NCBI GenBank assembly: GCA_964487045.1
Contig: CAZAOT010000001.1
Coordinates: 215,863 to 279,862, forward strand
DNA: 64,000 nucleotides
Direction: 5' to 3'
DNA from: an uncultured Candidatus Saccharibacteria bacterium
GTDB lineage: Bacteria; Patescibacteriota; UBA1384; DTJR01
The notes beneath the pieces were generated by a model. That model was not told the origin of the DNA, did no database searches, and saw only the letters and a list, made by a program, of their open reading frames with translations. This document shows positions 7,327 through 53,466 of this stretch, piece by piece. The first letter of the stretch is position 1, and each line of letters opens with the position of its first letter. The translations under genes and the position numbers were made by a program.

Positions 7327-8118
7327 ATGATGGAAAAGCTGTTTTACGGTCAGCCGGAGGTGGTTGCTGCAACTAGCCCCGTCGACGTTTTTGAAGTAGG
7401 TAATGGGTGGGGTCTCGCCAGGCAACAGCTGTATAACGACCCTTGTGCATTGGCGGTTGCCAGAGTCGAAAACTGCGCTTTTCTGGTCCGTTTCGAAAAT
7501 GGCCCAGAAATTGACTGGCAGGCAGGAGAGGGCTGGGGATGGTGTTTTCACGACGGCGGCTTCGTGCATACCGATATGCCAGAAGGCGGTAGATATATCT
7601 ACCCGGCCGTCGATCCTCTAGTGTTGTTCGCAGTCAGAGACGGCTGGGACTGGGAACAATTCCAGTATGCTCGCATGCTGCAGATCATCTGCGGCATCAG
7701 CGGTATGTACGAGCATGGGCAGAGCGTGTTCGAAGAACTCTACCCGAAGCTAAAGTTCCGCAAGAGTCTCGGTAACTACCAGGATCTCAGTAACGCGCTG
7801 GTTGCTGCCACTGCAGGACGTATGGCTCATCGGAGGGTCACAGTCCTAGGAGATTTCTGTAAGACGCAGCTCCAATGCGCAGGCAAGGGTGACAAGCGTC
7901 CCCTTGAGGCTCTGGTTACTACCCAGGGGCCAGTCGGTTATGTTGCTAATAGGCTCAAGGATGCCATCTATGCCATGATGGATGTCTGTAACAGCCTTGT
8001 CGGTGATTCAGTGGATCTTCAAGGCAGAAAGCTACTGCCTCGCAGTGAAGAACCGACGAGCGCCCTGGATTTCACGAAAGTCGACGAGGAATTACAGCGT
8101 ACGATCAACCTATTGTAG
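7327..8118 (+). CDS. GC-rich cassette A: hypothetical protein of 263 aa
   Basis: The open frame is visibly GC-rich against the AT-rich flanks. A TATAAT lies upstream and a hairpin (ggttgcc...ggcaacc) downstream at 8138-8160. Confidence 0.5.
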   Translation: MMEKLFYGQPEVVAATSPVDVFEVGNGWGLARQQLYNDPCALAVARVENCAFLVRFENGPEIDWQAGEGWGWCFHDGGFVHTDMPEGGRYIYPAVDPLVLFAVRDGWDWEQFQYARMLQIICGISGMYEHGQSVFEELYPKLKFRKSLGNYQDLSNALVAATAGRMAHRRVTVLGDFCKTQLQCAGKGDKRPLEALVTTQGPVGYVANRLKDAIYAMMDVCNSLVGDSVDLQGRKLLPRSEEPTSALDFTKVDEELQRTINLL

Positions 8119-15125: not shown

Positions 15126-15497
15126 ATGTCAAACAAAGATCAAAACTCAAAATCCAAGAAATACGGATTAGGCGAAAGGTGTTCAAAATTTGGGGAAGAA
15201 ATTATTTTATTTTGTAAGACAATTAAAGAATCTAACATCAATAAAAGCATTATTAATCAATTAATAAGATCCGGAACCTCAATTGGTGCAAATTATATGG
15301 AAGCTGATTGTGCCGAAAGTAAGAAGGACTTTTATCACAAGATAGGTATTTGTAAAAAAGAGTCAAAAGAATCTACGCATTGGCTCAGGATGCTAGCAAC
15401 TTCGGAACAGCATTTAAAAGCTAATTGCAGGAGACTATGGCAAGAAGCTCATGAATTAACATTAATCTTCTCAACAATTATTAAAAATAGAACTTAG
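15126..15497 (+). CDS. four-helix-bundle protein (the family also called 23S rRNA intervening-sequence protein)
   Basis: Characteristic of the family: ...IRSGTSIGANYMEADCAESKKDFYHKIGICKKESKESTHWLRM... Confidence 0.65.
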   Translation: MSNKDQNSKSKKYGLGERCSKFGEEIILFCKTIKESNINKSIINQLIRSGTSIGANYMEADCAESKKDFYHKIGICKKESKESTHWLRMLATSEQHLKANCRRLWQEAHELTLIFSTIIKNRT

Positions 15498-15998: not shown

Positions 15999-16072
15999 TG
16001 GAGGTCTGGCCGGGATTTGCACCCGGGTATGCGGTTTTGCAGACCGCTGCCTAACTACTCGGCCACCAGACC
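15999..16072 (-). tRNA. tRNA-Cys (GCA)
   Basis: Hand-folded. Acceptor GGTCTGG/CCAGACC, anticodon loop CTGCAAA, T stem CCGGG/CCCGG, discriminator U, encoded CCA. The T-loop is atypical (TGCAAAT). Confidence 0.75.
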
Positions 16073-16306
16073 ATGTCAAACTTCAAGCCTACTTAGTCAC
16101 CCTTGTCCTTCCGTAGGTCGCACTGCTCATAGAGGATATAATCCCTTGATCAGTAAGACCGAAGGAGGAAGACCTAATTTACAGGGTTAATATTATCAGC
16201 TTTTTATTAAATATAAAGAGTTTACGAAAGAAAACAGCCCCGGACGCGTCATCCTGGTAGAACCAGTCTGACGGCCGGGGCCGTTGGTGGCTAGTTGCCT
16301 AGCCAA

Positions 16307-16732
16307 CTACTCCCAGGAGAGCCAGGGGGCGGCAGAGGTGTCGGCAACCTTCATCAGGATTGCCAACGCGGTAGATGCGACGGGCCCCGGGAAGGCAACC
16401 GTTCCGCCTTCCTTGCGAATACCGACCTTGAGGCCAACAGCCTCAGCGGCGGCGCAGATGAAGCCGTGGCCGCGCGAGAAGATGTTGGCGGCGCCATCGA
16501 GCGCCAGTTCATGGCCATGGATGAGCACGTTGTCGCCATCCTGAAACATGTACACGAAGGTCGCGTTGGACTTGTCCTTGGCGACCTCCATCACGAACAT
16601 CTCGGCCTCGATCTCTCGGCTCTCCTCGTCAACTTCGCCTTGCTCATTCAGCGATACGACAGTCAGAGGCAGTGACCTTCTCATCTGAAACTCCAACCGC
16701 TTTAGGGGCGCGGCAACCCCATGGCTTGTCAA
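16307..16732 (-). CDS. GC-rich island B, gene 2: hypothetical protein of 125-141 aa
   Basis: GC-rich ORF. An internal Met at 16684 has the better SD (GGAG). Upstream at about 16800-16830 is a TTGACT-17-TATAGT promoter. Downstream (minus strand) is the gccccgg/ccggggc hairpin followed by a T-run. Confidence 0.5.
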   Translation of the reverse strand: MTSHGVAAPLKRLEFQMRRSLPLTVVSLNEQGEVDEESREIEAEMFVMEVAKDKSNATFVYMFQDGDNVLIHGHELALDGAANIFSRGHGFICAAAEAVGLKVGIRKEGGTVAFPGPVASTALAILMKVADTSAAPWLSWE

Positions 16733-16985
16733 ACTTCATGCAAGGGAGTACTAAGCTTCCTCCTCAAGCAAACATAAGACTATACCACAAAACAGCCTAA
16801 AAGTCAAGCCAAGTGAGTATTCTCACCTGGGTAACCCCTCACTCTAGACACGAAGTGAACGTGAACGAATTGTTCGAGTGAACTTTCGAGTTAGAGGGAG
16901 TGGTCAAGATTAGGGCTGTTTATAAAGAGGAAGGCCCCCTGTCGAATGACGGGGGGCCTGGTGGTTGCGAACAGAATCAGCGGGG

Positions 16986-17777
16986 CTATACCTTGGGAAA
17001 GATGGAGGCGCAGTCGCGCCCGGTGAACATGTTTTCGGGCGTGATCTGGACAGAGCGCCCGATGGCGTCGAGGTTGGGAGAGCATGCCAGAAGAACTTCG
17101 CGTAGATTCCACATGTTCATCCAGATATCCTTGAGCGCCTCAATGGCGCCGTCGGTTCCCTTCAGGAATAGTCCGTTCGGTGGGCCCTTGATGGGCCATT
17201 CCTTCAAGTGCTCCGATCCGGTCAGCCAACGCTCAAGCGCCAGAACCTCCTGAGGGAAGACGACTTTTTGCCCGGTGTTGTTCTGGCACTGGAGCCTGAC
17301 CTCATCAATGATGCTAGGGTCACTGGCCGAGGCCCGACCCTTGAAAGTAACGCGCACATTCTTGGCGGTGGTGTCGCGGACTCGTTGCCACTCGCAGTAC
17401 CAGTCGGCGAAGTCTTCCTTGATTGAGAGCTTGCAGACATAGGCTGATTGGAGCGTACTCCTTCGATCTCGGGAGTGATTGGACATGATCGGGTCGGGTG
17501 TGTGCTCGATGGACAAGCGTGGACCGAAGAGATGGCATCTCGTCAGGCCTCTGGCGAGGTTGACACAACGAGTGTTGCCAATGTAGTGAAGGAACCTAGT
17601 TCCTTGAGCTTCCGGACTCTGTAGTCGGATATCCATCTCGTCGCCGGAGGCGTTGGCCTGAATGTAGGCTGCGGCGCCTCCCTTGAAGCCTGGCACGATC
17701 TCGATGTCTCCTTGTAACGGTTTGAGCGCTTCGATGTCCGGAAGGCTGAACAGCTCGGGGGTCGGCGGCTGCACCAT
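16986..17777 (-). CDS. GC-rich island B, gene 1: hypothetical protein of 263 aa
   Basis: GC-rich ORF. AAGGAG lies 5 nt upstream of the ATG. No family was recognised. Confidence 0.5.
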   Translation of the reverse strand: MVQPPTPELFSLPDIEALKPLQGDIEIVPGFKGGAAAYIQANASGDEMDIRLQSPEAQGTRFLHYIGNTRCVNLARGLTRCHLFGPRLSIEHTPDPIMSNHSRDRRSTLQSAYVCKLSIKEDFADWYCEWQRVRDTTAKNVRVTFKGRASASDPSIIDEVRLQCQNNTGQKVVFPQEVLALERWLTGSEHLKEWPIKGPPNGLFLKGTDGAIEALKDIWMNMWNLREVLLACSPNLDAIGRSVQITPENMFTGRDCASIFPKV

Positions 17778-17880
17778 CTTGACTCCTTCTTGGCGGCTTA
17801 CCAGTAGGCCATGCCCGAACGGGTTGGGGAAGCGTCAACTATTGGTCCTGAGAAAACGGACATATGTTTATTCGCTGATC

Positions 17881-17926
17881 CTATCCGCCAAAGATCAAGT
17901 ATTCTCCTGATCACTGGCGGATAAGT
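17881..17926. promoter_or_regulatory. imperfect 17-bp inverted repeat (cTATCCGCCAaaGATCA...TGATCActGGCGGATAag), a candidate operator upstream of island B gene 1
   Basis: The palindrome was read directly. It lies about 100-150 bp upstream of the 17777 start and is adjacent to and overlaps a TTGACA. Confidence 0.45.
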
Positions 17927-18034
17927 ATGTCAAAGAACATTCAAAAGCACTCCTTGTAAAATCTTCACCAATACAATAACCTTATTTGTTAATATTTACA
18001 AAATTTCTCTCTTGATATATAATTGCTCCAGTTA

Positions 18035-18109
18035 GCGGGTGTAGTTCAGCGGTAGAACGCTTCCTTGCCAAGGAAGAGGCCGTGGGTTCAAGTCCCATCA
18101 CCCGCTCCA
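18035..18109 (+). tRNA. tRNA-Gly (GCC)
   Basis: Acceptor GCGGGTG/CACCCGC, anticodon loop TTGCCAA, T-loop TTCAAGT, encoded CCA. A terminator hairpin (aaccgcc-acca-ggcggt + T-run) follows. Confidence 0.9.
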
Positions 18110-20319: not shown

Positions 20320-20610
20320 TCATCCGCCTTGCATCTTTGCGAATGCCCCGCGGATAAGTGTTTCCAGATGAGTGTAGTAACCGTAGCCTCTCGTGTCGAG
20401 TGGCTGGCCGTCCAGGTACTGTGCACGCGAGGGCGAACCCTCGCATACTGTCTTGCCATCAATGACAACTGGCAGCAGATGTCGGTGGTCGTCGTCATGA
20501 CCACCCCAGTTCAGGATGCCTTCGCTCAATGACCCGGTGATCTTTTCGAGCTTGGCGACGTCGTTGTCGGGAGGTACGTCTAGTCCACACTTATCGCATT
20601 TTGCAGACAT
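20320..20610 (-). CDS. GC-rich cassette C: 96-aa hypothetical protein with an N-terminal CxxC
   Basis: TTGACT-17-TATAAA promoter and AAGGAG SD upstream. A strong terminator lies downstream (ggggccgcg...cgcggcccc + T-run, 20255-20298). Confidence 0.5.
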   Translation of the reverse strand: MSAKCDKCGLDVPPDNDVAKLEKITGSLSEGILNWGGHDDDHRHLLPVVIDGKTVCEGSPSRAQYLDGQPLDTRGYGYYTHLETLIRGAFAKMQGG

Positions 20611-22300: not shown

Positions 22301-22334
22301 TTTTTCTTTTCTGATGCAGGGGGTAAGAGAACCT

Positions 22335-22680
22335 ACTTGCGAAGCGGTTCTCCTACCCCCTGCACCCCCCTCTTTGCTCGCCCAAAAGACGATTTTGCTT
22401 TCTGAGACACTCCGAAAATCGCTTCGCTAGAATCGGCCTCTCGAAGCGCAAAATCGACTTTTGATAAAGGAGGGTTGGTCTTTTTGTTCGGGCAATATGC
22501 GATTGCCCGAACAGCAGGTAAAGCGAAAATTTTCTTGTTTCAATGAGTAGGCCCGCAAACTTGTCGGGTAGAGGCTCATTAGAAAAAGAAAATTTGAGCA
22601 GTCCTTGAAGCGTGTAAGGGTGAGGAAAGTTTTGAAAACCTAGGGAATTTGCCCGCAACAAATTCCTGGGTTTTCAAAAT
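22335..22680 (-). repeat. copy 5 (inverted orientation, diverged) of the recurrent structured element
   Basis: The reverse complement matches the shared blocks ccctaggttttcaa..tttcctcaccct and carries the terminal hairpin ttttgaaaacctaggg..cccgcaa..ccctgggttttcaaaa. Confidence 0.5.
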
Positions 22681-22780
22681 TATATAAAAATTATTATAAG
22701 ATTTTTCCATTTTTTTCTAATTTATAAAATTTATAGTGAGTCTATGAGGCTTAGGTCCTTTGCTGTAGGAGGAAGCTACC

Positions 22781-22858
22781 ATGCAAGAAGGGTTCAACCC
22801 TTTCAACCTAGACGGCTCGATCAACTACGATCACCCGCATTTTCCATCACACTGGTAA
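22781..22858 (+). CDS. GC-rich cassette D, small ORF 1 (25 aa, MQEGFNPFNLDGSINYDHPHFPSHW)
   Basis: AGGAGG lies 7 nt upstream. It is immediately followed by small ORF 2. Both are short, so coding status is uncertain. Confidence 0.3.
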   Translation: MQEGFNPFNLDGSINYDHPHFPSHW

Positions 22859-22872
22859 GGAGAGCTACTGAC

Positions 22873-22986
22873 ATGAGCAAGCCGATCAACCACTGCACTG
22901 GTCATATCGTCCGTCCGAACGGCACTGTCACTCGTCCCACCCCACCTCCGCCCGCTTCCGCCAAGAAGCACATCGCTGTCATCTAG
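22873..22986 (+). CDS. GC-rich cassette D, small ORF 2 (37 aa, Pro-rich, MSKPINHCTGHIVRPNGTVTRPTPPPPASAKKHIAVI)
   Basis: AAGGAGAG SD. A strong terminator follows (ggcgaccgc...gcggtcgcc + TTTTT, 23015-23048). Confidence 0.35.
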   Translation: MSKPINHCTGHIVRPNGTVTRPTPPPPASAKKHIAVI

Positions 22987-25100: not shown

Positions 25101-25730
25101 ATGAAAAAAATTGGTTGGTCTAATAAAATGGCATATGCGGTCGGTCTTTTAGCTACCGACGGTCATCTTTCAATTGATAAACGACATATAGATCTAACTT
25201 CAAAGGATGTCGAACAGCTGAAAAATTTTATGCAGGCGATTGGGAGACAATATATCATAGCTAAAAAATCTTCTGGTTATACGGGTGAGCTTTGTAGCCG
25301 AATTCAATTTAGTGACGTATCGCTGTATCGGTGGTTGCTGAGTATCGGCTTCAAGCAGAAAAAGACTGATGAGATGAGCGATTTAAAGATCCCTCAAAAG
25401 TATTTCTTTGATTTTCTTAGAGGACATTTCGATGGTGACGGGTCTATATACTCATACTTTGATCCTCGCTGGAAAAGTAGTTTTATGTATTACATAACAT
25501 TTATAGCTAAGAACAGAGATCATATTGTTTGGTTACAAAAAATGATTGAAAAATTAAGTGGCGTAAAAGGAAGGATTGGATTGGGAAAGCGTGTATATCA
25601 AGTAAGATTCGCCAAGAAAGAGAGCAAGGTTCTTATCAATAAGATGTACAAAAGAACTGACGCCCTTTATTTAACTAGAAAATATGATAAAATCTTAAAG
25701 ATCCTTGAAATTGATGCGGATGTGCTGTAA
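25101..25730 (+). CDS. LAGLIDADG homing endonuclease (two-motif)
   Basis: Motifs LLATDGHL and FDGDGSIY. The last 15 nt and stop codon overlap the 5' end of tRNA-Leu(GAG). Confidence 0.8.
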   Translation: MKKIGWSNKMAYAVGLLATDGHLSIDKRHIDLTSKDVEQLKNFMQAIGRQYIIAKKSSGYTGELCSRIQFSDVSLYRWLLSIGFKQKKTDEMSDLKIPQKYFFDFLRGHFDGDGSIYSYFDPRWKSSFMYYITFIAKNRDHIVWLQKMIEKLSGVKGRIGLGKRVYQVRFAKKESKVLINKMYKRTDALYLTRKYDKILKILEIDADVL

Positions 25731-28299: not shown

Positions 28300-28632
28300 T
28301 GCGAGCAGTAGCTCGCGCTTATGTGAAAACCGGGGGGACACTCTTGATTGTGAAACATCCACTTTTTGAGTACCACCTCAAAAAGCCCTAGGTTTTCAAC
28401 GCTTTCCTCACCCTCGCAATGCCCTTGGTGAAGCTATCTTTGTTGAAACTTCCGGAATTTATTCAGTTTACGTTCAGACTTACGTCTTCATATTCAACTG
28501 ATATGCAGTTCCAACTTTCAACTTCAGAGAGCATCTATTAATTCATAGGCTCGAAGCTCGCTTTTTCGCCTATGAATTGGAGGGATTTATTAATGCCACA
28601 GAATTGACAAAACAGCACTTTTGTGCTATATT
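28300..28632 (+). repeat. copy 1 of the recurrent structured element, with a TTGACA-17-TATATT promoter at its 3' end
   Basis: Shares conserved blocks with the copies at 52555, 37131(-), 42381(-) and 22335(-). It carries two expanded hairpin inserts. Confidence 0.7.
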
Positions 28633-28736: not shown

Positions 28737-29261
28737 GTGATTGATTTGTCGAAGCAAGAACGGACAACCGGACTCGTTGTTGTAGCAGCGGTCGTAGGGA
28801 TCTGGATCCTTAGCCGCATCGTCGGCGATGGCTTCGGCGAGACGTTCTGCGAGATCTTGGCCGTGAGCGCCGGCGCCCTGGTCTGTACCATACTGGCATC
28901 TGCGCTGCTGACGAAGCCGGATGGGAAGATGCCGGAGGAGAGTGCTATCATCGGGCTCTTCATGATCTTCTTTGTCCTGCTGGCTATCCCGCACTTCAGT
29001 GTCTCGGCCAAGCTTGCGTCGAGCAAGTGGCAGATGAAGATCGCGGTGGCCCACGACTATGACAAAGCAGGGATCAAAGAGGCGCTCACCCAGCGTGACG
29101 AGACGCTCCGGCGCTCGAGTGCTTACATGATCGGTGACGGCTGGAAGTATGACCGTCACACCCACTACTTCAACCGGGGCTGGAACCTGTATCTCTGGGT
29201 TCCGTTCTCCGGATACCGGCGCAAGCCGGTCACGACCAACGGCCTGGGGACTAGTCCCTAG
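28737..29261 (+). CDS. GC-rich cassette F: hypothetical integral membrane protein (3-4 TM)
   Basis: GC-rich ORF with a structured ~100-nt leader and a GGGAGG SD. The start could be the GTG at 28737 or the TTG at 28746. Confidence 0.5.
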   Translation: MIDLSKQERTTGLVVVAAVVGIWILSRIVGDGFGETFCEILAVSAGALVCTILASALLTKPDGKMPEESAIIGLFMIFFVLLAIPHFSVSAKLASSKWQMKIAVAHDYDKAGIKEALTQRDETLRRSSAYMIGDGWKYDRHTHYFNRGWNLYLWVPFSGYRRKPVTTNGLGTSP

Positions 29262-31908: not shown

Positions 31909-31937
31909 TTGACAAAACGGCTTAGATAAGCTATAAT
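31909..31937 (+). promoter_or_regulatory. consensus sigma70 promoter (TTGACA-17-TATAAT) for cassette G, followed by a 15-bp perfect leader hairpin (31950-31987)
   Basis: Read directly from the sequence. Confidence 0.6.
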
Positions 31938-32034
31938 CTAGTATTTCATAAACGCACGGCTCTGGAGTAATTCAGAGCCGTGCGTTTATAAGAAACCACC
32001 TGCTCTTTGAGAGTTAGGTTAAGGAGGAACGGCC

Positions 32035-33717
32035 GTGGGCAAGCTGTGGCTGGCTCTTGTATTGCTTGTTGTTGTCTCGATGTCGTTTGCTGCTCAAGAC
32101 TTCGCAGTCGAGTGGCATGTCCACTCGAGCACCTTCTCGGACGGTACTCGCACCCCGCTACAACTCGTGCTCGATTCGCTTTGCCAAGTGGTGGTCTTCT
32201 CAGATCACCTCGACGGCATAGCAGCAAAGGGGGCGAAGCTCTACCTCGACACCATCAGAAGGTTGTCGGGTACAGCTGGGACGCTGGCTATTCCTGCGGT
32301 CGAAGTGACTTGTGGTAAACTTGAGAGCTCATATGATGTGATTGCTCTTGGCCTGAACGAAGAATCGCTTGACGAGCTGATTTCGCTTTATCAGAGAGGG
32401 GCTTTCAACTACTCCGAGCAAGGGCTACCTGCCCTTAAGGCGGTTGCAAACCGCTACAACTTGATCCTCATCGCTGCCCATCCGGACAGTAAGGACACCC
32501 TGCTTGGCAAGGGCATCCCTTTCCATCTCAACGAGAACGCCAAGTATGTCGACGGGTTTGAGATGTTCGATTCGAACCACATCGGTTTTGACGCGGACAA
32601 ATTTCCCGAAAACTGCCTGCCGTTCTACAGGCACTTTGACCGGCTAACGCTCACAGCTGGCAGCGACTTTCATTTCCTGATTCACGGCTCATTGCCAACC
32701 GAGTCTTGGCGTGAAGCGCCAATGACCCGGGTCATCCTCGACGACGACGCCTCGCTCACCGAAGAGTCGATCACTGACTCAATCCGGCGTGGCCGAACTT
32801 ACGTCTCGAGTCTGCGCAGCGCTCGGCTAGTCGAAGCGAGTGCGATGCCCGGCGGAGTGTGGAAGCTCGCCGAGCCGCTCTATATGGCTTGCCGAGGAGT
32901 AGAGGAAGGCGATTTTCTCTACGACAAGGTCAATGTGATTGCGGTCACCGGGAAGACGTGGCACAAGCGGAGCTTTCAACCTCGCTTTGATGGTGACAAG
33001 TTGGTGCTGAAGATCTCGGCTGATCAGTTTCCCCCTGGCATCAAGAGTCTGAACGTAGACTTCTGCGGGCGGATCCTCACCTCGACGATTCTCACCGCGC
33101 CGGCGCCAACTGCTCCGGTGCAGTCATCGCCTGTCGCTTCCGCACCCTCGCCGGTCCAGCCGACCCCTCAACCCGCACCTCAGCCTGCCGCCACATCCTC
33201 ACCAAACGCTAATGTCGATCCGAAGTACGGCATCAATCTTGCGGCGTATAAGTACCGCTTCCGCGGTACACAGGGGAATGTCTTTGGCAACACGAACGAG
33301 TATCTGGTCGTCTTTAATGACGACCTCAAGGGTAAAGTCTGGCATCAATTCGTGGCAGAATTTCCGCCGATTGTTCTCGACGTACAGCTCGAGATGAAAA
33401 GCGACGGCCACGCCCAATGTGTAGAGCTGTTCGACTTTGAACAGACCGCGAACGCCTGGCTTCCCAACCGTGCCCGGGATCCTCGCAAGACCGACCCATA
33501 CCTTGATGAACTGAGGTGTTGGAGTGAAGGTGACTGGGATCTGATCCCCAAAGGGAAGGCGCGTTTGAGAGTCAGCATTGATCCCAAGAGCCTCATGGCG
33601 TCGCACTGCGACACGTCGGGGCTTGCCTATACGATCAAGTCGATCCCTGCCTGGGCCTACGCGTTCAATCGGGGGTTTAACTACTACTATGACCAGGTTT
33701 TCCTAAAGCGTTTCTAG
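32035..33717 (+). CDS. GC-rich cassette G: secreted PHP-domain phosphoesterase with a Pro/Ala-rich linker and a C-terminal domain
   Basis: GTG start with AAGGAGG 7 nt upstream, then a signal peptide. PHP motifs HVHSSTFSDG, AAHP and SDFH are present. A strong terminator lies at 33745-33781. Confidence 0.6.
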   Translation: MGKLWLALVLLVVVSMSFAAQDFAVEWHVHSSTFSDGTRTPLQLVLDSLCQVVVFSDHLDGIAAKGAKLYLDTIRRLSGTAGTLAIPAVEVTCGKLESSYDVIALGLNEESLDELISLYQRGAFNYSEQGLPALKAVANRYNLILIAAHPDSKDTLLGKGIPFHLNENAKYVDGFEMFDSNHIGFDADKFPENCLPFYRHFDRLTLTAGSDFHFLIHGSLPTESWREAPMTRVILDDDASLTEESITDSIRRGRTYVSSLRSARLVEASAMPGGVWKLAEPLYMACRGVEEGDFLYDKVNVIAVTGKTWHKRSFQPRFDGDKLVLKISADQFPPGIKSLNVDFCGRILTSTILTAPAPTAPVQSSPVASAPSPVQPTPQPAPQPAATSSPNANVDPKYGINLAAYKYRFRGTQGNVFGNTNEYLVVFNDDLKGKVWHQFVAEFPPIVLDVQLEMKSDGHAQCVELFDFEQTANAWLPNRARDPRKTDPYLDELRCWSEGDWDLIPKGKARLRVSIDPKSLMASHCDTSGLAYTIKSIPAWAYAFNRGFNYYYDQVFLKRF

Positions 33718-35382: not shown

Positions 35383-35470
35383 GGCGCGGTGTCGTAATCG
35401 GTAGCCGAGGCAGACTTAAAATCTGTTGGTCCTAAAGACCGTGTGGGTTCGAGTCCCACCCGCGCCACCA
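35383..35470 (+). tRNA. tRNA-Leu (TAA), type II
   Basis: Acceptor GGCGCGG/CCGCGCC, anticodon loop CTTAAAA, long variable arm, T-loop TTCGAGT, CCA. Confidence 0.8.
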
Positions 35471-35482
35471 TAGGGAGGATTT

Positions 35483-36175
35483 TTGCAAAAGTTGATCGAT
35501 ACAGAATTCTTCAAGAAATGGACGCATGATAGTGCTTATCTAATCGGCTATATATGTGCTGATGGTTGTGTACATAAGCGATCCAACAGGAATAATAGCT
35601 ATATTCTAACGATCACATCAAAAGATAAAGATCATTTGCACAAAATCAACACCATATTGTCATCTAATTATGCTATTTCAAAAAAAATCGGCGGTAGTGG
35701 ATCGATTTCCTACAATCTAAGTATTTCAAACACTGAGCTTTGCCTTGATCTAATAAATCTAGGGATAACTCCTCGTAAGACTTTCACCATAAGTAAAGTA
35801 GACGTTCCGGACTCTTTATTCTGCGATTTTTTGCGAGGTTATTTTGACGCAGATGGATCGATCTACATCTATAAGGTTAATAATACTTGGCAACTCAAGC
35901 TAGCTTTGGTTTCAGCTAGCAAGAACTTTTTGGAATTATTAGAGAGGGAAATATCTTTCAGACTTCAACTAGAGAGAAAAAATATTTATACGTTTCAGGG
36001 CAAGGGCAAGAACAATCCATTGCACTCGCTAGTTTTTTATATAAATGATGGGCAAAAATTCTTAAAATTTATTTACAAAAATAGTCCCCATATTTTTTTA
36101 GAAAGAAAGTACGAAGTCTTTAATAAATGGAAGACCATCAAAAGACGTAGCTATATATTAACAACTCAAAGTTGA
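35483..36175 (+). CDS. LAGLIDADG homing endonuclease (two-motif)
   Basis: Motifs YICADGCV and FDADGSIY. TTG start with AGGGAGG 7 nt upstream. It lies 12 bp downstream of tRNA-Leu(TAA). Confidence 0.75.
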   Translation: MQKLIDTEFFKKWTHDSAYLIGYICADGCVHKRSNRNNSYILTITSKDKDHLHKINTILSSNYAISKKIGGSGSISYNLSISNTELCLDLINLGITPRKTFTISKVDVPDSLFCDFLRGYFDADGSIYIYKVNNTWQLKLALVSASKNFLELLEREISFRLQLERKNIYTFQGKGKNNPLHSLVFYINDGQKFLKFIYKNSPHIFLERKYEVFNKWKTIKRRSYILTTQS

Positions 36176-37130: not shown

Positions 37131-37400
37131 CAATTTTATTTATAAAAGTCAAAGATATTATATTCAAATAGTCGAAGAAGCGAGCTTGGAAGCGATAATA
37201 AATAAATGCTCTCCGAAGTTGAAAGCTGGAACTGATTATCTTGGCAAACTTGTCCAAGAATGAATTCCAGAAGGTTCAACAAGGAGAGCTTCATCAAGGG
37301 CGTTGCGAGGGTCAGGAATTCGTTAAAAACCTAGGGAACACACCGAAAGTGTGCCCTGGGTTGTTAACATTAACTGCGAGCCGAAGGCTCGCAAAGTAAT
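37131..37400 (-). repeat. copy 3 of the recurrent structured element, upstream of the native trmH-like gene
   Basis: Its reverse complement is about 85% identical to copy 2 (52555-52770) and shows compensatory stem changes. Confidence 0.7.
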
Positions 37401-39926: not shown

Positions 39927-40544
39927 TCAATAGAGCAAAGTACTCGTACTGGTACGAAAACCAATACTCCACTCAAGGTCGGAATAGATCTTTGCTTCGA
40001 TTGAGCCGAAGCGCTGACATATACCAACCTGGAAGTCAAAGTCGTCTAGGTTCGAAACGTCCAGGAAGCCCCGAGCGATAAAGTCGGTGCTTGATGTGAG
40101 TTTGGCGATGCGCCATTTCGGCAGAGAAAGGAAACCGGTCGGGTGCGAGTTGGGTAGCGCGATCGGATAGAGGAGCCGCAAATCGATATTTCTATCGAGG
40201 TACTGCAGCCCTGCGTAGAACTCCTCTTTCTGGATTGGGTCGTATCCCATTTCCTTGTCTCGATCGGATTCCCAGATTCCCGGTACGATATCGAGCATAA
40301 AGCGGTACGACGAGCGCCAGTCTTTAGGGATTGGCCAGGAAAACCTGACGTTCTTGGTCAGTGAGGTTGACGATTCGTAGTCGATTTCGAAGAGGAATAT
40401 CTGATCGTAGAAGTATCCTTTGACCAGACCGTCGCTCCACTCGGCCCCGACTTCGAAGGGTCGGTTGTCAATATCCTGCGCCCAAAGCGGCGTCAGGCAG
40501 AGCACGGCTACCGCAAGAGCGGCTAAACGTGTCACGCATGACAC
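39927..40544 (-). CDS. GC-rich cassette I: secreted hypothetical protein with a signal peptide and a C-terminal aromatic residue
   Basis: AAGGAGG SD. A terminator ctgcccgcc-gata-ggcgggcag + T-run lies on the minus strand. Confidence 0.5.
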   Translation of the reverse strand: MSCVTRLAALAVAVLCLTPLWAQDIDNRPFEVGAEWSDGLVKGYFYDQIFLFEIDYESSTSLTKNVRFSWPIPKDWRSSYRFMLDIVPGIWESDRDKEMGYDPIQKEEFYAGLQYLDRNIDLRLLYPIALPNSHPTGFLSLPKWRIAKLTSSTDFIARGFLDVSNLDDFDFQVGICQRFGSIEAKIYSDLEWSIGFRTSTSTLLY

Positions 40545-41583: not shown

Positions 41584-42246
41584 CTAGACCGGGTTGCCAT
41601 TGGCGTCAGCACCGGCGCCATCTGTGTTGACCGAGTAGTCGTTCTTCGTCTCGGTCGTGGTCGTGCGGGTGCCGGCGTTCGAGGCGTTGTCGGCCACGTT
41701 GGCCGTGCCACCCATGCTGCCTTCGGCGGCGGACGAGGTGGTGCCTCCCTCGGCCGAAACCGTCGGGGAAGCAGTGGCGCTCACGCCACTCACGAGCGGC
41801 CCGCTCCACAGCCCATTGGGCAGGGAGAGGGTCAGGTTGATCGTGGGCACAGTCGGCGGCTGACTGCGGAGAGCGTTCAGCTCTCGCCGCATCAGCACCA
41901 GCGCGATCAGGCCCGCGATAAGGCCAAGGGCCAGTCCGATGAGGACTGCCATGACCCAGGAGTTGTCCCGCCAAATCTGCTCCGCCGCCGCGACGGCCAT
42001 CGCCCAAGCCTCCGCGCGAGTCGCGTTGGCGTTGGGGCGGAGCGTACCGTCGGGGTACCCGTTCAGGTTCCCCTGACCGGTGCCCTTGTTCCATGTGGGC
42101 TGGGCCCAGGCGGGCGCGGTCTCACCGGTGTTGAGGTTCGTGAAGTTGATCGGTCCAGAGGAAGGGATCCACGGCCGATCAGTCTGAGCGAACGCGACGG
42201 ACGACAGGAGAACGACAGTGATCACGGCAATGATGGTGCGGGACAT
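41584..42246 (-). CDS. GC-rich cassette J: secreted protein with an S-layer-homology (SLH) domain, then a TM helix and a Ser/Thr/Gly-rich tail
   Basis: SLH signature GYPDGTLRPNANATRAE. The promoter TTGACA-17-TATACT (42381-42409, minus strand) is near-identical to the cassette F promoter. Terminator gggccaccc...gggtggccc at 41529-41557. Confidence 0.55.
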   Translation of the reverse strand: MSRTIIAVITVVLLSSVAFAQTDRPWIPSSGPINFTNLNTGETAPAWAQPTWNKGTGQGNLNGYPDGTLRPNANATRAEAWAMAVAAAEQIWRDNSWVMAVLIGLALGLIAGLIALVLMRRELNALRSQPPTVPTINLTLSLPNGLWSGPLVSGVSATASPTVSAEGGTTSSAAEGSMGGTANVADNASNAGTRTTTTETKNDYSVNTDGAGADANGNPV

Positions 42247-42380: not shown

Positions 42381-42650
42381 AGTATAGCACAAAATAGCTG
42401 TTTTGTCAATCCTGGAGCTAATTAATCGCCGAAGGCACCGCTTCCAAAAGATGATTTTTCGCTTCTTGCGCGAGTAGTGCCGCAAATCTGTCGGCTCGAG
42501 TGCTCCCGGGAAAGAAAAATCATACTTTTGAGCGTGTTGCGCTTTTTGAGTGGAGCAAAAAGCTAATCCATCAAACCTAGGAACTTGCCCGCAACAAGTT
42601 CTTGGGGTTTCGACATTAACTGCGAGCTTTTAGCTCGCAAAATTTCTTTC
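42381..42650 (-). repeat. copy 4 (partial) of the recurrent structured element, carrying the cassette J promoter
   Basis: Shares the terminal hairpins tgcgagc-N5-gctcgca and aaacctagg..cccgcaa..ccttggggttt, plus the promoter block. Confidence 0.55.
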
Positions 42651-43943: not shown

Positions 43944-45782
43944 ATGGACGAGATTTTATATTTAGAACCAGATGAGGAAATAACTTCCGTAGTCGATAAG
44001 CTTAAGGGGCTCGAGGGGGACTCGGTTGGCTTAGTGGCGCCGAAGGGTTCTTCGATCGTCCAATCTTTAGTTAGTTTGAAATTACTTCAAAAACAAGCCG
44101 AGTCGCTCGGTAAGGAAATTGCCATTGTTACTTCTGATGAAGTAGGCCAGAATTTGGCCGGACGAATTAACCTGCCGGTATATGCCGACGTAAGAAGTCG
44201 TAAGCCGATTGAGCCAAAAGAGCAGAAAGAACCAGAAGAAACGGGTCCAATCGAAATTACAGACGAACCAGCTACGGCAACCGCAGCCGAGATAGCTCGC
44301 GAAAAAGTTGAAACTCCAAAAGAAAGACCAGAAAAAGAACTTCCAGAGGAATATAAAGATTTACCGAAAAATTTTGAAATTAGTCGTTATGATCAAGCTA
44401 AAGATACTGAAGCACCCGAAGAGGTTGCGCCTGTGGCCGCCGAGGATGATGATCCTAAGGAGAGCGAGCAAGAAGTAGAAACTAGCGAGGAAGACAATAT
44501 GCCAAGTGAGCGCTCGGAAGAAAAATCAAATACTAATTTTGTAAACAGACCTCTTCGTGAGAGAGCCGAAGACAATAGGGCTGATCTTGAGAGTGCTAGA
44601 CCAATGATCCATGAGAAAAGGCAGGTCCCAAGTGTTAGTAAGAAAAAATCTCCAAAGAAAGCAATTATCGCAACTGTCATAACTATCTTGGTTTTGGGCG
44701 GACTTTTGTTCGCTGATCTAGCCTTGGCCAAGCTTGATATTAACTTGACGATTCCGGCTGAAGAAATTTCCAAAGATGTAATGATTTCAGTGGAGAAGGA
44801 TCATCCAGCACTCGACTTAGAAAATGGGATTATTGGGGGAACTCAAGTAGATAAAGACGTTTTGAGCGAAGGAAATTATAATTCAACAGGTGAAAAAGAA
44901 ACTGGAGATAAAGCCAAGGGTACTCTTGTCGCAAAGAACGATGCGGGAGTAGATGAGGCAATTGCCGGTGGCACTACTGTAAGGAGTTCTGGCGGAGTTG
45001 AGTTTACTACTGATAAGGACGTTGTCGTGCCAAAAGCGAGCCTAAACTCTAATGGCGATAAAGTTCTAGGACAAGCGAGTTTGGCTGTAACTGCTAAAGA
45101 GGCGGGGGCAAAAGGAAACCTGCCTTCATCAACTTCCTATGTGATTTCTTCTAAGACAAAAATTTCGATTTCGGGAGAAACTACTGGCGGAACGACCAAG
45201 AAAATTAAAATTGTAGCAAAGGCGGATGTTGATGCAGCTAAGAAAGATCTTCAGGAAAAGGCAATTACAAAATTCAAGGAAGAGTTGAAGACTGATAAAA
45301 AAACCTTGTTCTTAGATGATGCAGTCAAGGCTGACCTTAGTGAATTTACGACAAGCAAAAATATTAGTGATGAAGCCGAAAGTTTCAAAGCAAATGCAAA
45401 AGTGAAGATTTCGACTATTACATTTTTGACTGATGACTTTAATCAGGCTGTACAGAAAACCGCCGAAAAGGGGTTGCCGGAAGGTAAGAGTTTGCTTGTT
45501 ACCGAATCTGACTCTGTCACCCCGGCTTTAGAAGAAAATCAGATAAATGTCGGCAAGCTTAAGGTAAAGGGTGAGCTTAGAAGTCATATCGGCCCTAAGA
45601 TCGATCTTGACCAAATTGTCGCTTCCTTCAGACTTAAACCAATCAAAAATATCAAAGCCGAACTTCAGAAGATAGAGGGGGCGACTGTTAATGACGTCAA
45701 GATTTCACCAAGCTTTGCCCTTCCAATTGGACCATTATTCAAGAGCAGCACTCGCCTAAAAATTGAATATACCAAGAAGTAA
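43944..45782 (+). CDS. bitopic hypothetical membrane protein: ~225-aa cytoplasmic Glu/Lys-rich N-domain, one TM helix, ~360-aa extracellular domain
   Basis: Translationally coupled to ftsA (TAAATG). No family was recognised. Confidence 0.5.
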   Translation: MDEILYLEPDEEITSVVDKLKGLEGDSVGLVAPKGSSIVQSLVSLKLLQKQAESLGKEIAIVTSDEVGQNLAGRINLPVYADVRSRKPIEPKEQKEPEETGPIEITDEPATATAAEIAREKVETPKERPEKELPEEYKDLPKNFEISRYDQAKDTEAPEEVAPVAAEDDDPKESEQEVETSEEDNMPSERSEEKSNTNFVNRPLRERAEDNRADLESARPMIHEKRQVPSVSKKKSPKKAIIATVITILVLGGLLFADLALAKLDINLTIPAEEISKDVMISVEKDHPALDLENGIIGGTQVDKDVLSEGNYNSTGEKETGDKAKGTLVAKNDAGVDEAIAGGTTVRSSGGVEFTTDKDVVVPKASLNSNGDKVLGQASLAVTAKEAGAKGNLPSSTSYVISSKTKISISGETTGGTTKKIKIVAKADVDAAKKDLQEKAITKFKEELKTDKKTLFLDDAVKADLSEFTTSKNISDEAESFKANAKVKISTITFLTDDFNQAVQKTAEKGLPEGKSLLVTESDSVTPALEENQINVGKLKVKGELRSHIGPKIDLDQIVASFRLKPIKNIKAELQKIEGATVNDVKISPSFALPIGPLFKSSTRLKIEYTKK

Positions 45783-52488: not shown

Positions 52489-52554
52489 TTTAGATTAAAA
52501 AGATTCTAAGAAAAAAGACCCGCGAGGGTCTTTTTTCGTTTTGGGAGCTAAAGA

Positions 52555-52819
52555 TCGTATGTAATGTTAACAACCCAGGGGACACTTTCGGTGCGTCCCC
52601 TAGGTTTTTAACGATTTCCTCACCCTCCTAACGCCCTTTGTGTAGCTCTTTTTGTTGAACCTTCTGGAATTCATCCTCGAACAAGTTTGTCGAGGTAATC
52701 AGTTCCAGCTTTCAACATCAAAGAGCATCTATTTTTTAAAGTCTCGAAGCCCGCTTCTTCGACTATAAATCGACTTTTGATACGGGAGTATTGACATTTA
52801 CCGGGGAATGTGGTAATAT
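52555..52819 (+). repeat. copy 2 of the recurrent structured element, with a TTGACA-17-TAATAT promoter at its 3' end
   Basis: About 85% identical to the reverse complement of 37131-37400. It sits directly upstream of cassette K. Confidence 0.7.
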
Positions 52820-52829
52820 ACGCAAGCTC

Positions 52830-53210
52830 ATGTATTTGAGCACATCCGACGTATACGGAGGCAAGCCCATGGGATGGGAACACGGAACGTTCGGTCGTGG
52901 GGCGTACGACGCGTTTCTCGCTGACTTGAGAAACGATAAGTACAACGACTTCACCATCGTGAAGCTCGACAATCCCAACCAGCCTGAGTACAAGCGACTC
53001 TGCCGCGGACGCGACCTCGACTGCAAGAGGTCTCTCCCGCTGCGCATGGCTCGCTTCAATTACGCAGGCCGCCGCGACAACTGGTACGTCGTGGAGGAAG
53101 TTCTCGCGGTTGATGACAGGGATTGCGATGGCGCGTCCATCGTATCTCTGATTGTCTACCCCGAAGGCTGCCGCCCTGCAGTCAGCCCACCACTGATGCT
53201 GGAGGCCTGA
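52830..53210 (+). CDS. GC-rich cassette K: ~126-aa hypothetical protein, probably translated from a near-leaderless mRNA
   Basis: The ATG lies about 10 nt after the -10 box. A terminator (ggacc...ggtcc + TTTTT) lies at about 53365-53400. Confidence 0.45.
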   Translation: MYLSTSDVYGGKPMGWEHGTFGRGAYDAFLADLRNDKYNDFTIVKLDNPNQPEYKRLCRGRDLDCKRSLPLRMARFNYAGRRDNWYVVEEVLAVDDRDCDGASIVSLIVYPEGCRPAVSPPLMLEA

Positions 53211-53466
53211 CCACACGAGTCCTGAGCGGACTGTAAAATGCTCCGTCTCCGGCAGACGTTAAATGCTGGACTTCCCCGGAAACGGGGGTTCTAGGCATGG
53301 CTTGCCATGTCTACCACACCTGATCGTTTTGCTGTTTATTTGGGCGGCTAGTTCCGTCCACTATATGCGGGACCTGCGGCGATATTGCTGACGGGTCCTT
53401 TTTGTTATTACTTGATTGTAAAATACCCATTTTGAGATATAATCAAACCAGTAAAAAAGGAATTTT

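Follow-up and report, generated by a model that had tools for sequence, protein, structure and literature searches.

A family of covarying, hairpin-rich intergenic elements in a Candidate Phyla Radiation genome

Bacteria of the Candidate Phyla Radiation (CPR) have tiny genomes, and to our knowledge very few non-coding RNAs have been described from them. In the window analysed here, a 64-kb stretch of DNA (64,000 nucleotides, from a contig of 320 kb) whose GlmS and SerS proteins are 73-77% identical to proteins named Candidatus Berkelbacteria, a short intergenic hairpin recurs with both arms of its stem changed and its loop kept. This raises two questions: whether selection maintains the pairing, and what kind of molecule folds. 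The hairpin belongs to a repeat of about 250 nt that recurs in inverted form at 52555-52766 and, in direct orientation and more diverged, near 28300-28580. We report that the repeat is one of a new family of covariation-supported bacterial non-coding elements from a poorly charted phylum. What the family does is a matter of graded probability, and we place about even confidence in reading it as a lineage-restricted set of paralogous structured RNAs, or of 3′-UTR modules, in a Berkelbacteria-like CPR genome.

Nine copies of two types are known, six in the window and three in L017, a metagenome contig (JGI) of a relative with 88% identity in GlmS. Type 1 consists of copies A, B, C and L17_1, and the shorter type 2 of w22, w22b, w42, L17a and L17b (Table 1). 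A covariance model built from A, B and C (R1) recovered all three, together with the weaker w22 and the three L017 copies, while w22b and w42 were added by reading of flanks and by nhmmer. A second covariance model, built from the five type-2 copies (R2), scored these at 130-185 bits and cross-detected B and C. With its filters off, R2 found no additional copy in the window, and it gave 0 matches over 678 kb of unrelated DNA, a negative control taken from viral contigs that had matched by chance. B and C, the closest pair, are 87% identical (23 differences over 177 positions); between the two types, similarity is weak. No protein-coding signal is common to the copies.

Table 1. Position and make-up of the element copies in the window and of the parts of copy B (positions are those of the window)
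Feature	Position	Strand	Description
Copy A (type 1)	28301-28544	plus	P0 28301-28316, core 28320-28544; R1 137 bits
Copy B core (type 1)	37196-37372	minus	P1, linker and P2; R1 216 bits; RNAfold z-score -5.6
Copy C core (type 1)	52562-52738	plus	R1 205 bits
Copy w22 (type 2)	22510-22686	minus	R1 48 bits; R2 132 bits
Copy w22b (type 2 variant)	22308-22471	plus	R2 130 bits
Copy w42 (type 2)	42437-42638	minus	core 42437-42622, P0 42622-42638; R2 148 bits
P0 of copy B	37376-37392	minus	GCGAGC-CUUCG-GCUCGC with T-rich run 5′; includes candidate -35 box TTGCGA
P1 of copy B	37322-37368	minus	two-part hairpin; upper part 37336-37356
Linker J of copy B	37296-37321	minus	C-rich, unpaired in all folds, carries UUCCUGACCCUCGCAACGCCC
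P2 of copy B	37201-37295	minus	long interrupted hairpin
Apical hairpin of copy B	37239-37259	minus	stem UCUUGG/CCAAGA, bulged A, loop region ACAAGUUUG
Apical hairpin of copy C	52675-52695	plus	CCUCGA-ACAAGUUUG-UCGAGG
3′ block of type 1 (copy B)	37172-37190	minus	mini-hairpin AAG-CUCG-CUU, then CUUCG

All copies are intergenic, and each is a modular element of about 165-245 nt. From 5′ to 3′ it comprises an optional T-run with a GCGAGC hairpin (P0), a two-part hairpin (P1), a C-rich linker, an interrupted hairpin (P2) and a U-rich tail. Independent folding of all copies returns the same layout of P1, linker and P2, and A, B and C, each folded alone, reach z-scores of -4.9 to -5.6. P0, of the form GCGAGC-N4-5-GCUCGC with a T-run in front, stands 3-40 nt upstream of P1 in five copies, and L17a carries a covarying version of it (GGCAGC/GCUGCC). 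Across the window and more than 150 fetched loci, this hairpin is exclusive to positions directly 5′ of elements. A role for P0 as the terminator of the upstream gene was rejected: its T-run precedes the hairpin, and it also occurs with no upstream gene and never without the element. Part of the linker is the complement of the 5′ arm of P0, UUGCGAG with CUCGCAA in B and A and UUGGGAG with CUCCUAA in C (37388-37394 with 37302-37308; 52544-52550 with 52625-52631), both partners being altered together. This complementarity, absent from L17_1 and type 2, may represent an alternative or long-range pairing. A perfect 13-bp hairpin between the convergent w22b and w22 (TGTTCGGGCAAT...ATTGCCCGAACA at 22483-22515, TTTTT in front) has the same order of T-run and hairpin as P0 and a different sequence.

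The linker is 20-33 nt long, with 35-58% C and 9-26% G, and carries UUCCUNACC in seven of the nine copies. In A, B and C its motif reads UUCCUNACCCUC, which occurs three times in the window against 0.05 expected; w22 has UUUCCUCACCC. P2 holds 30-40 bp broken by internal loops, in copy B as the stems GCUCUCC/GGAGAGC, GUUGAA/UUCAAC, CUGGAAUU/AGUUCCAG (with a conserved U.G) and the apical stem. Its tip loop is ACAAGUUUG in five of the nine copies; w42 has the variant ACAGAUUUG. The linker motif is missing from two copies (w22b, and w42, where an extra hairpin takes the place of the linker) and the ACAAGUUUG loop from four, so neither is essential to every copy. The two types are finished differently. 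Type-1 copies finish with a small hairpin (GAAG-CUCG-CUUC) and then UUCG, a 3′ block conserved in A, B, C and L17_1, its stem differing in the last (AAGUG/CACUU), while in type 2 CAAAAG and CUUUUG flank P2 and lengthen its stem. The tails after P2 are U-rich but interrupted. Individual copies add their own variations: in A, P1 is enlarged by a 32-nt insertion and the apex is longer and different; w22 has P1, the linker and a shorter P2 capped by CCCG-ACAAGUUUG-CGGG; and w22b, which also has a different apex, is the positional ortholog of L17b with the base stem of P1 swapped.

The case for selection on pairing begins with B and C, which an earlier note on this DNA had compared (as its copies 3 and 2). 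The note held that the apical stem had changed in both arms with pairing and loop kept. Both hairpins are present as quoted, and the claim is borne out: the six base differences amount to three pairing-preserving double substitutions (U-A to C-G twice, G-C to A-U) around an identical ACAAGUUUG. A second stem, the upper part of P1, had been said to behave in the same way. Both of its arms are indeed altered (GGGCACAC/GUGUGUUCC versus GGGGACAC/GUGCGUCCCC), but it re-pairs in a shifted register (C20-G34 in copy B, G20-C36 in copy C) and gains an A.C mismatch in C, and is therefore only loosely compensatory. The genuine second example is a third stem absent from the note, the base of P2, with two clean double changes (C-G to U-A in each). 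Over the ungapped 177-nt core, ten of the 23 differences fall in base pairs common to both minimum-free-energy folds. These ten are exactly five pairing-preserving double substitutions, and shared pairs contain no one-sided change. When 23 random substitutions were placed on B, at least 50 of the 54 pairs were retained in 0.2% of 20,000 trials.

Collecting further homologues, as the earlier note had proposed, strengthened its observation. In the five type-2 copies, aligned by MAFFT without fitting to a structure, the paired fraction of cells is 83.7%, and sliding the partners lowers it to 42-54%; both members have changed in 26 of 53 pairs, and none of 500 shuffles reached the observed values. 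Fitting seven copies to the model gave 88.5% paired cells (33-52% after sliding) and 32 of 54 pairs altered on both sides. The apical helix is 100% paired in these seven of the nine copies, four of its six positions showing three or four pair types. Anchored extraction from the raw sequence of the four type-1 copies gave an apical stem with 6/6 Watson-Crick pairs in each (24 cells) and four different stem sequences: UCUUGG/CCAAGA, CCUCGA/UCGAGG, UCAGUU/AACUGA and UCUGUC/GACAGA. Since the apical stems keep their pairing in the added copies, the non-compensatory drift that the note had named as counter-evidence is not seen. The loop ACAAGUUUG is retained in five copies above the stems CUUGG, CUCGA, CCCG, CCCCA and GCCG, and the P1 base stem of w22b differs from that of L17b in nine of its ten pairs (AUUAAAACCA/UGGUUUUAAU versus GCAGGGGGUA/UACCCCCUGC) yet pairs completely in both.

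Stems thus vary while loops and linker are conserved, so each copy is under selection for a single-stranded fold. The covariation looked for in structured non-coding RNAs generally is present, with slid-partner and shuffle controls far lower. Selection for base pairing, beyond primary sequence alone, is in our judgement strongly supported by these comparisons, and this part of the earlier note's conclusion stands firmly. The nine copies come from two related genomes only, so part of the covariation reflects paralog history. It is very improbable that the pairing arose as a by-product of mutation, with template switching correcting quasi-palindromes and selection playing no part. Such correction predicts perfect arms, whereas one and the same U.G wobble, bulged A and set of asymmetric internal loops recur in the helices of different copies; nor would it conserve the unpaired linker or the loop sequences.

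The earlier note had specified RNA, and here our support is more measured: the folded strand is likely to be RNA, in element orientation, instead of single-stranded DNA. A U.G wobble is retained in all four type-1 copies, U.G, U-A and C-G interchange at fixed helix columns, and bulges and asymmetric internal loops are conserved across copies. The U-rich tail exists in element orientation only, and the five copies behind a stop codon all point the same way as the gene that ends there. However, a tally of G.U against A.C in the helices stands at 33 to 22, with no clear excess, and the G-rich opposite strand folds at least as stably in all nine copies; we therefore grade RNA of the element strand as likely and no higher. 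That the functional transcript is instead the opposite strand, with a G-rich linker, shares the very low probability given to the by-product reading. Its lower folding energy in 9/9 copies speaks for it, as does one helix column that reads G-C, A.C or A-U and would hold G.U on the other strand. In silico, however, a G-rich strand always has the better fold, and this transcript would finish in an A-run, not a U-run.

Signals for transcription of the element itself are suggestive. The four copies with no co-oriented upstream gene have, by eye, TTGCGA followed after 16-17 nt by TAATGT or TATGGC, or a TATAAT box, just before P1; the TTGCGA that would serve as the -35 box of this candidate promoter sits inside P0. 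A consensus promoter scan called no promoter for any copy. With an intrinsic terminator taken as a GC-rich stem of about 5-14 bp immediately 5′ of a U run, a terminator scan made calls on sub-stems of just two copies, B and w22, and none on A or C; it flagged P2 in copy B only. TTGAC downstream of A, B and C was rejected as part of the element, comparison with the relative L026 having identified it as the -35 box of the host gene. A boxA-like motif was rejected for want of consistent defining features, the GCUCUUU in question sitting inside a covarying stem.

The genomic setting offers an alternative account, unlikely though deserving of serious attention, in which the element would act in cis, as an RNA module where one transcription unit borders another. 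There it would serve as a long hairpin terminator or insulator, or stabilise the 3′ end of the upstream mRNA, in the manner of REP, ERIC or BOX sequences and with no role in trans. All five copies behind a stop codon are co-oriented with the gene concerned (glmS, greA, an SBP_bac_5 gene, and a 521/522-aa gene in both genomes). Four of these, A, L17a, L17b and w22b, begin within about 30 nt of the stop codon (A at 12 nt past that of glmS, w22b about 10 nt past that of the 522-aa gene), and their upstream genes have no other terminator. Further, the gene after A, B, C or w42 has a promoter of its own, whose -35 box follows the copy at a distance of 20-60 nt, and the type-2 P2 between CAAAAG and CUUUUG resembles a bidirectional terminator. 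Against this, copy C follows a canonical terminator after greA, so a terminator role there would be redundant, and B, w42 and L17_1 lie between divergent genes with no upstream co-oriented gene; w22 lies between the convergent w22b and a divergent GC-rich ORF. Intrinsic terminators have much shorter and less interrupted stems, a terminator requires no conserved C-rich linker, invariant loops or second hairpin of about 20 bp, and syntenic relatives do without the element.

That absence from relatives bears on a different alternative, which we consider improbable: that the copies are non-autonomous mobile DNA of the MITE or IS200/IS605 PATE type, their hairpins kept for a transposase encoded elsewhere that acts on single-stranded ends. 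The copies are dispersed, in both orientations and strictly intergenic. Neither R1 nor R2 found a copy in about 240 kb of syntenic DNA from relatives (L018-L034, reached through GlmS and SerS homologs). The spacer between SpoU and SLT is 327 nt with copy B and 3-105 nt in relatives, where it is empty, and this comparison shows copy B to be an insertion between two back-to-back host promoters. TATT stands on either side of copy B relative to the empty L026 site, but this would-be duplication is a single case in AT-rich DNA. Three independent Logan assemblies break off within copy B, as assemblies tend to at dispersed repeats. GCGAGC/GCUCGC is common to the subterminal hairpins of the 5′ end and, in type 1, also of the 3′ end. 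This 6-nt motif is, however, the sole terminal inverted repeat, a repeat search having found no other of the kind that MITEs carry. Nor do the copies form a near-identical burst with a related autonomous element. They are old and diverged: even B and C differ at 23/177 positions, and the types recognise each other only through a model. Structural selection extends across the whole interior, beyond the ends.

Searches for the machinery of mobility and for known families point the same way. The window ORFs scanned contained no transposase, reverse transcriptase, integrase or TnpB-like domain; TnpA, TnpB and IscB Pfam domains were absent from the window and from the called genes of fetched loci, and neighbouring and window ORFs had no RVT domain of the kind that a retron would need. 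Against Rfam 15 at gathering thresholds, only tRNAs passed in the whole window. Permissive scans of all copy regions on both strands gave only sub-threshold generic hairpins, such as miRNA precursors, below 31 bits, and there was no match to IS605-orfB or HEARO RNAs. Blastn against phage and plasmid collections gave no match. In viral contigs, two specific patterns found nothing and a looser pattern found chance matches only. The exact linker-motif pattern matched five times in genome contigs and seven times in metagenome contigs, in each case by chance inside unrelated sequence. An attC-like recombination site and a coding region were both rejected, consistent defining features being absent, and literature searches found no description of the element.

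We return to the reading that we favour, a family of structured RNAs. A recently active mobile element fits less well, since divergence between the copies is old and constraint reaches beyond the ends into the whole interior. A plain terminator also fits less well. It would leave the invariant loops, a second hairpin and the conservation of an unpaired linker unaccounted for, and behind the terminator of greA it would be redundant. Under the favoured reading, RNA would be made in element orientation, read through from the gene whose stop codon precedes it in five copies. Alternatively, transcription might start at a weak promoter whose -35 box TTGCGA would lie inside P0, 15-17 nt before a TAnnnT box 5′ of P1. 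The transcript would end at the U-tail of P2. More speculatively, the two hairpins might hold the C-rich linker open as a working surface, which could pair with G-rich sequences resembling Shine-Dalgarno sites or bind a protein; the invariant loops might make protein or tertiary contacts, and the copies might owe their origin to duplication, or to insertion into intergenic spacers that tolerate it. Within the 64-kb window, sequences complementary to the linker or apical loop occur only in the elements themselves, which leaves no linker target there.

The neighbourhood of the elements has a distinctive gene content. Nine ORFs with no Pfam family have 52-64% GC against about 40% for the genome, and several encode signal peptides or transmembrane segments: 7327-8118(+), 16307-17777(-), 20320-20610(-), 22780-22986(+), 28737-29261(+), 32035-33717(+), 39927-40544(-), 41584-42246(-) and 52869-53210(+). 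They look like lineage-specific, possibly acquired, surface-protein cassettes. Each of the ORFs at 20320-20610, 28737-29261, 41584-42246 and 52869-53210 comes with a hairpin terminator as well as a strong sigma-70-type promoter and a ribosome-binding site of GGAGG type. Promoter and ribosome-binding site are both present at 32035-33717, and a ribosome-binding site at 22780-22986. The promoters at 28604-28632(+), 42382-42410(-) and 31910-31938(+) are near-identical (TTGACAAAAC(A/G)GC...GCTATA.T), those after copies A and w42 agreeing at about 28 of 31 positions, which suggests that the GC-rich cassettes share a promoter module.

Four of the GC-rich ORFs adjoin elements, three of them downstream and in the same orientation. 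Copies A, C and w42 each precede a strong promoter, a GC-rich ORF of no known family and a terminator, in that orientation, and w22 abuts a fourth cassette, which is divergent from it. In the relative L031 (SerS 84% identical), the greA-serS spacer (1564-2118, against 52790-53400 of the window) holds a different GC-rich ORF and no element, and its content therefore marks the spacer as a variable hot spot across the clade. We speculate, at a probability that is scarcely better than negligible, that the element is a module of RNA or DNA, specific to this CPR lineage, that marks or controls hot spots at which GC-rich foreign cassettes are captured and expressed. If true, this would be a previously undescribed cassette-associated system; the window shows no integrase.

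Two free-standing LAGLIDADG-type ORFs and a gene for a 23S-rRNA-intervening-sequence protein are present (25101-25730(+), 35483-36175(+) and 15126-15497(+)), one of the LAGLIDADG-type ORFs following directly after a tRNA at 35383-35467; no rRNA or intron was detected in the window. Between tRNA genes at 16002-16072(-) and 18035-18106(+), a 2-kb block of 54-57% GC with ORFs of no known family (16002-18106) looks like a tRNA-flanked island. A GlmS homolog from a JGI metagenome, P0008, is 694 aa long with a GIY-YIG domain (PF01541), which suggests an insertion of the homing-endonuclease or intein type in the glmS gene of a sister lineage. Beside an FtsA-like gene, a 612-aa protein encoded at 43944-45782(+) has a weak Baseplate_J-like Pfam match (E = 1e-5), which is odd for a cell-division neighbourhood.

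Six copies in 64 kb fill a visible share of scarce intergenic space. With stems held by such clear covariation, the element should have a function, be it that of riboregulator, protein-binding scaffold or transcription-unit border. Being narrowly and patchily distributed, it is of limited general importance; the patchiness also means that sister genomes allow its gains and losses to be traced, and both covariance models can be used to chart where the family occurs.

Several known systems share parts of this design. MITEs, IS200/IS605-derived palindrome-associated elements and orphan TnpB or IscB guide-RNA scaffolds are also small non-coding sequences, dispersed and rich in hairpins, in which related hairpin motifs stand near either end and presence differs between relatives. 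Unlike them, the present family has no partner transposase or TnpB in view and no convincing terminal repeats or duplications, its copies are not near-identical, and its interior is under selection. Retron msr/msd regions also place a short hairpin region before one long hairpin, and the 5′ GCGAGC of type 1 could pair with its 3′ GCUCGC in a comparable manner; yet no reverse transcriptase gene lies beside the copies or in the window, each genome holds many copies, and type 2 lacks the end pairing.

Small RNAs of Firmicutes with C-rich seeds, of the RsaE/RoxS type, offer a parallel in layout. They too have an unpaired C-rich motif between hairpins followed by a U-tailed hairpin, as expected for a regulator that pairs with G-rich ribosome-binding sites. 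The element differs in being about twice as long, in having many paralogs per genome and in matching no Rfam family at any threshold; no complementary target appears in the window, and its promoter and terminator are only suggested.

In genomic habit, the family resembles ERIC/IRU of enterobacteria, BOX of Streptococcus pneumoniae and REP/BIME. These are likewise multi-copy, strictly intergenic, modular and found in either orientation, with stable hairpins over 100-250 nt, often co-transcribed with their neighbours and patchy among close relatives. There is no relation in sequence, and the host belongs to a different phylum, within the CPR. The family is set apart from these repeats by its description: its copies are far more diverged and nevertheless covary, around a conserved unpaired C-rich linker and invariant loops.
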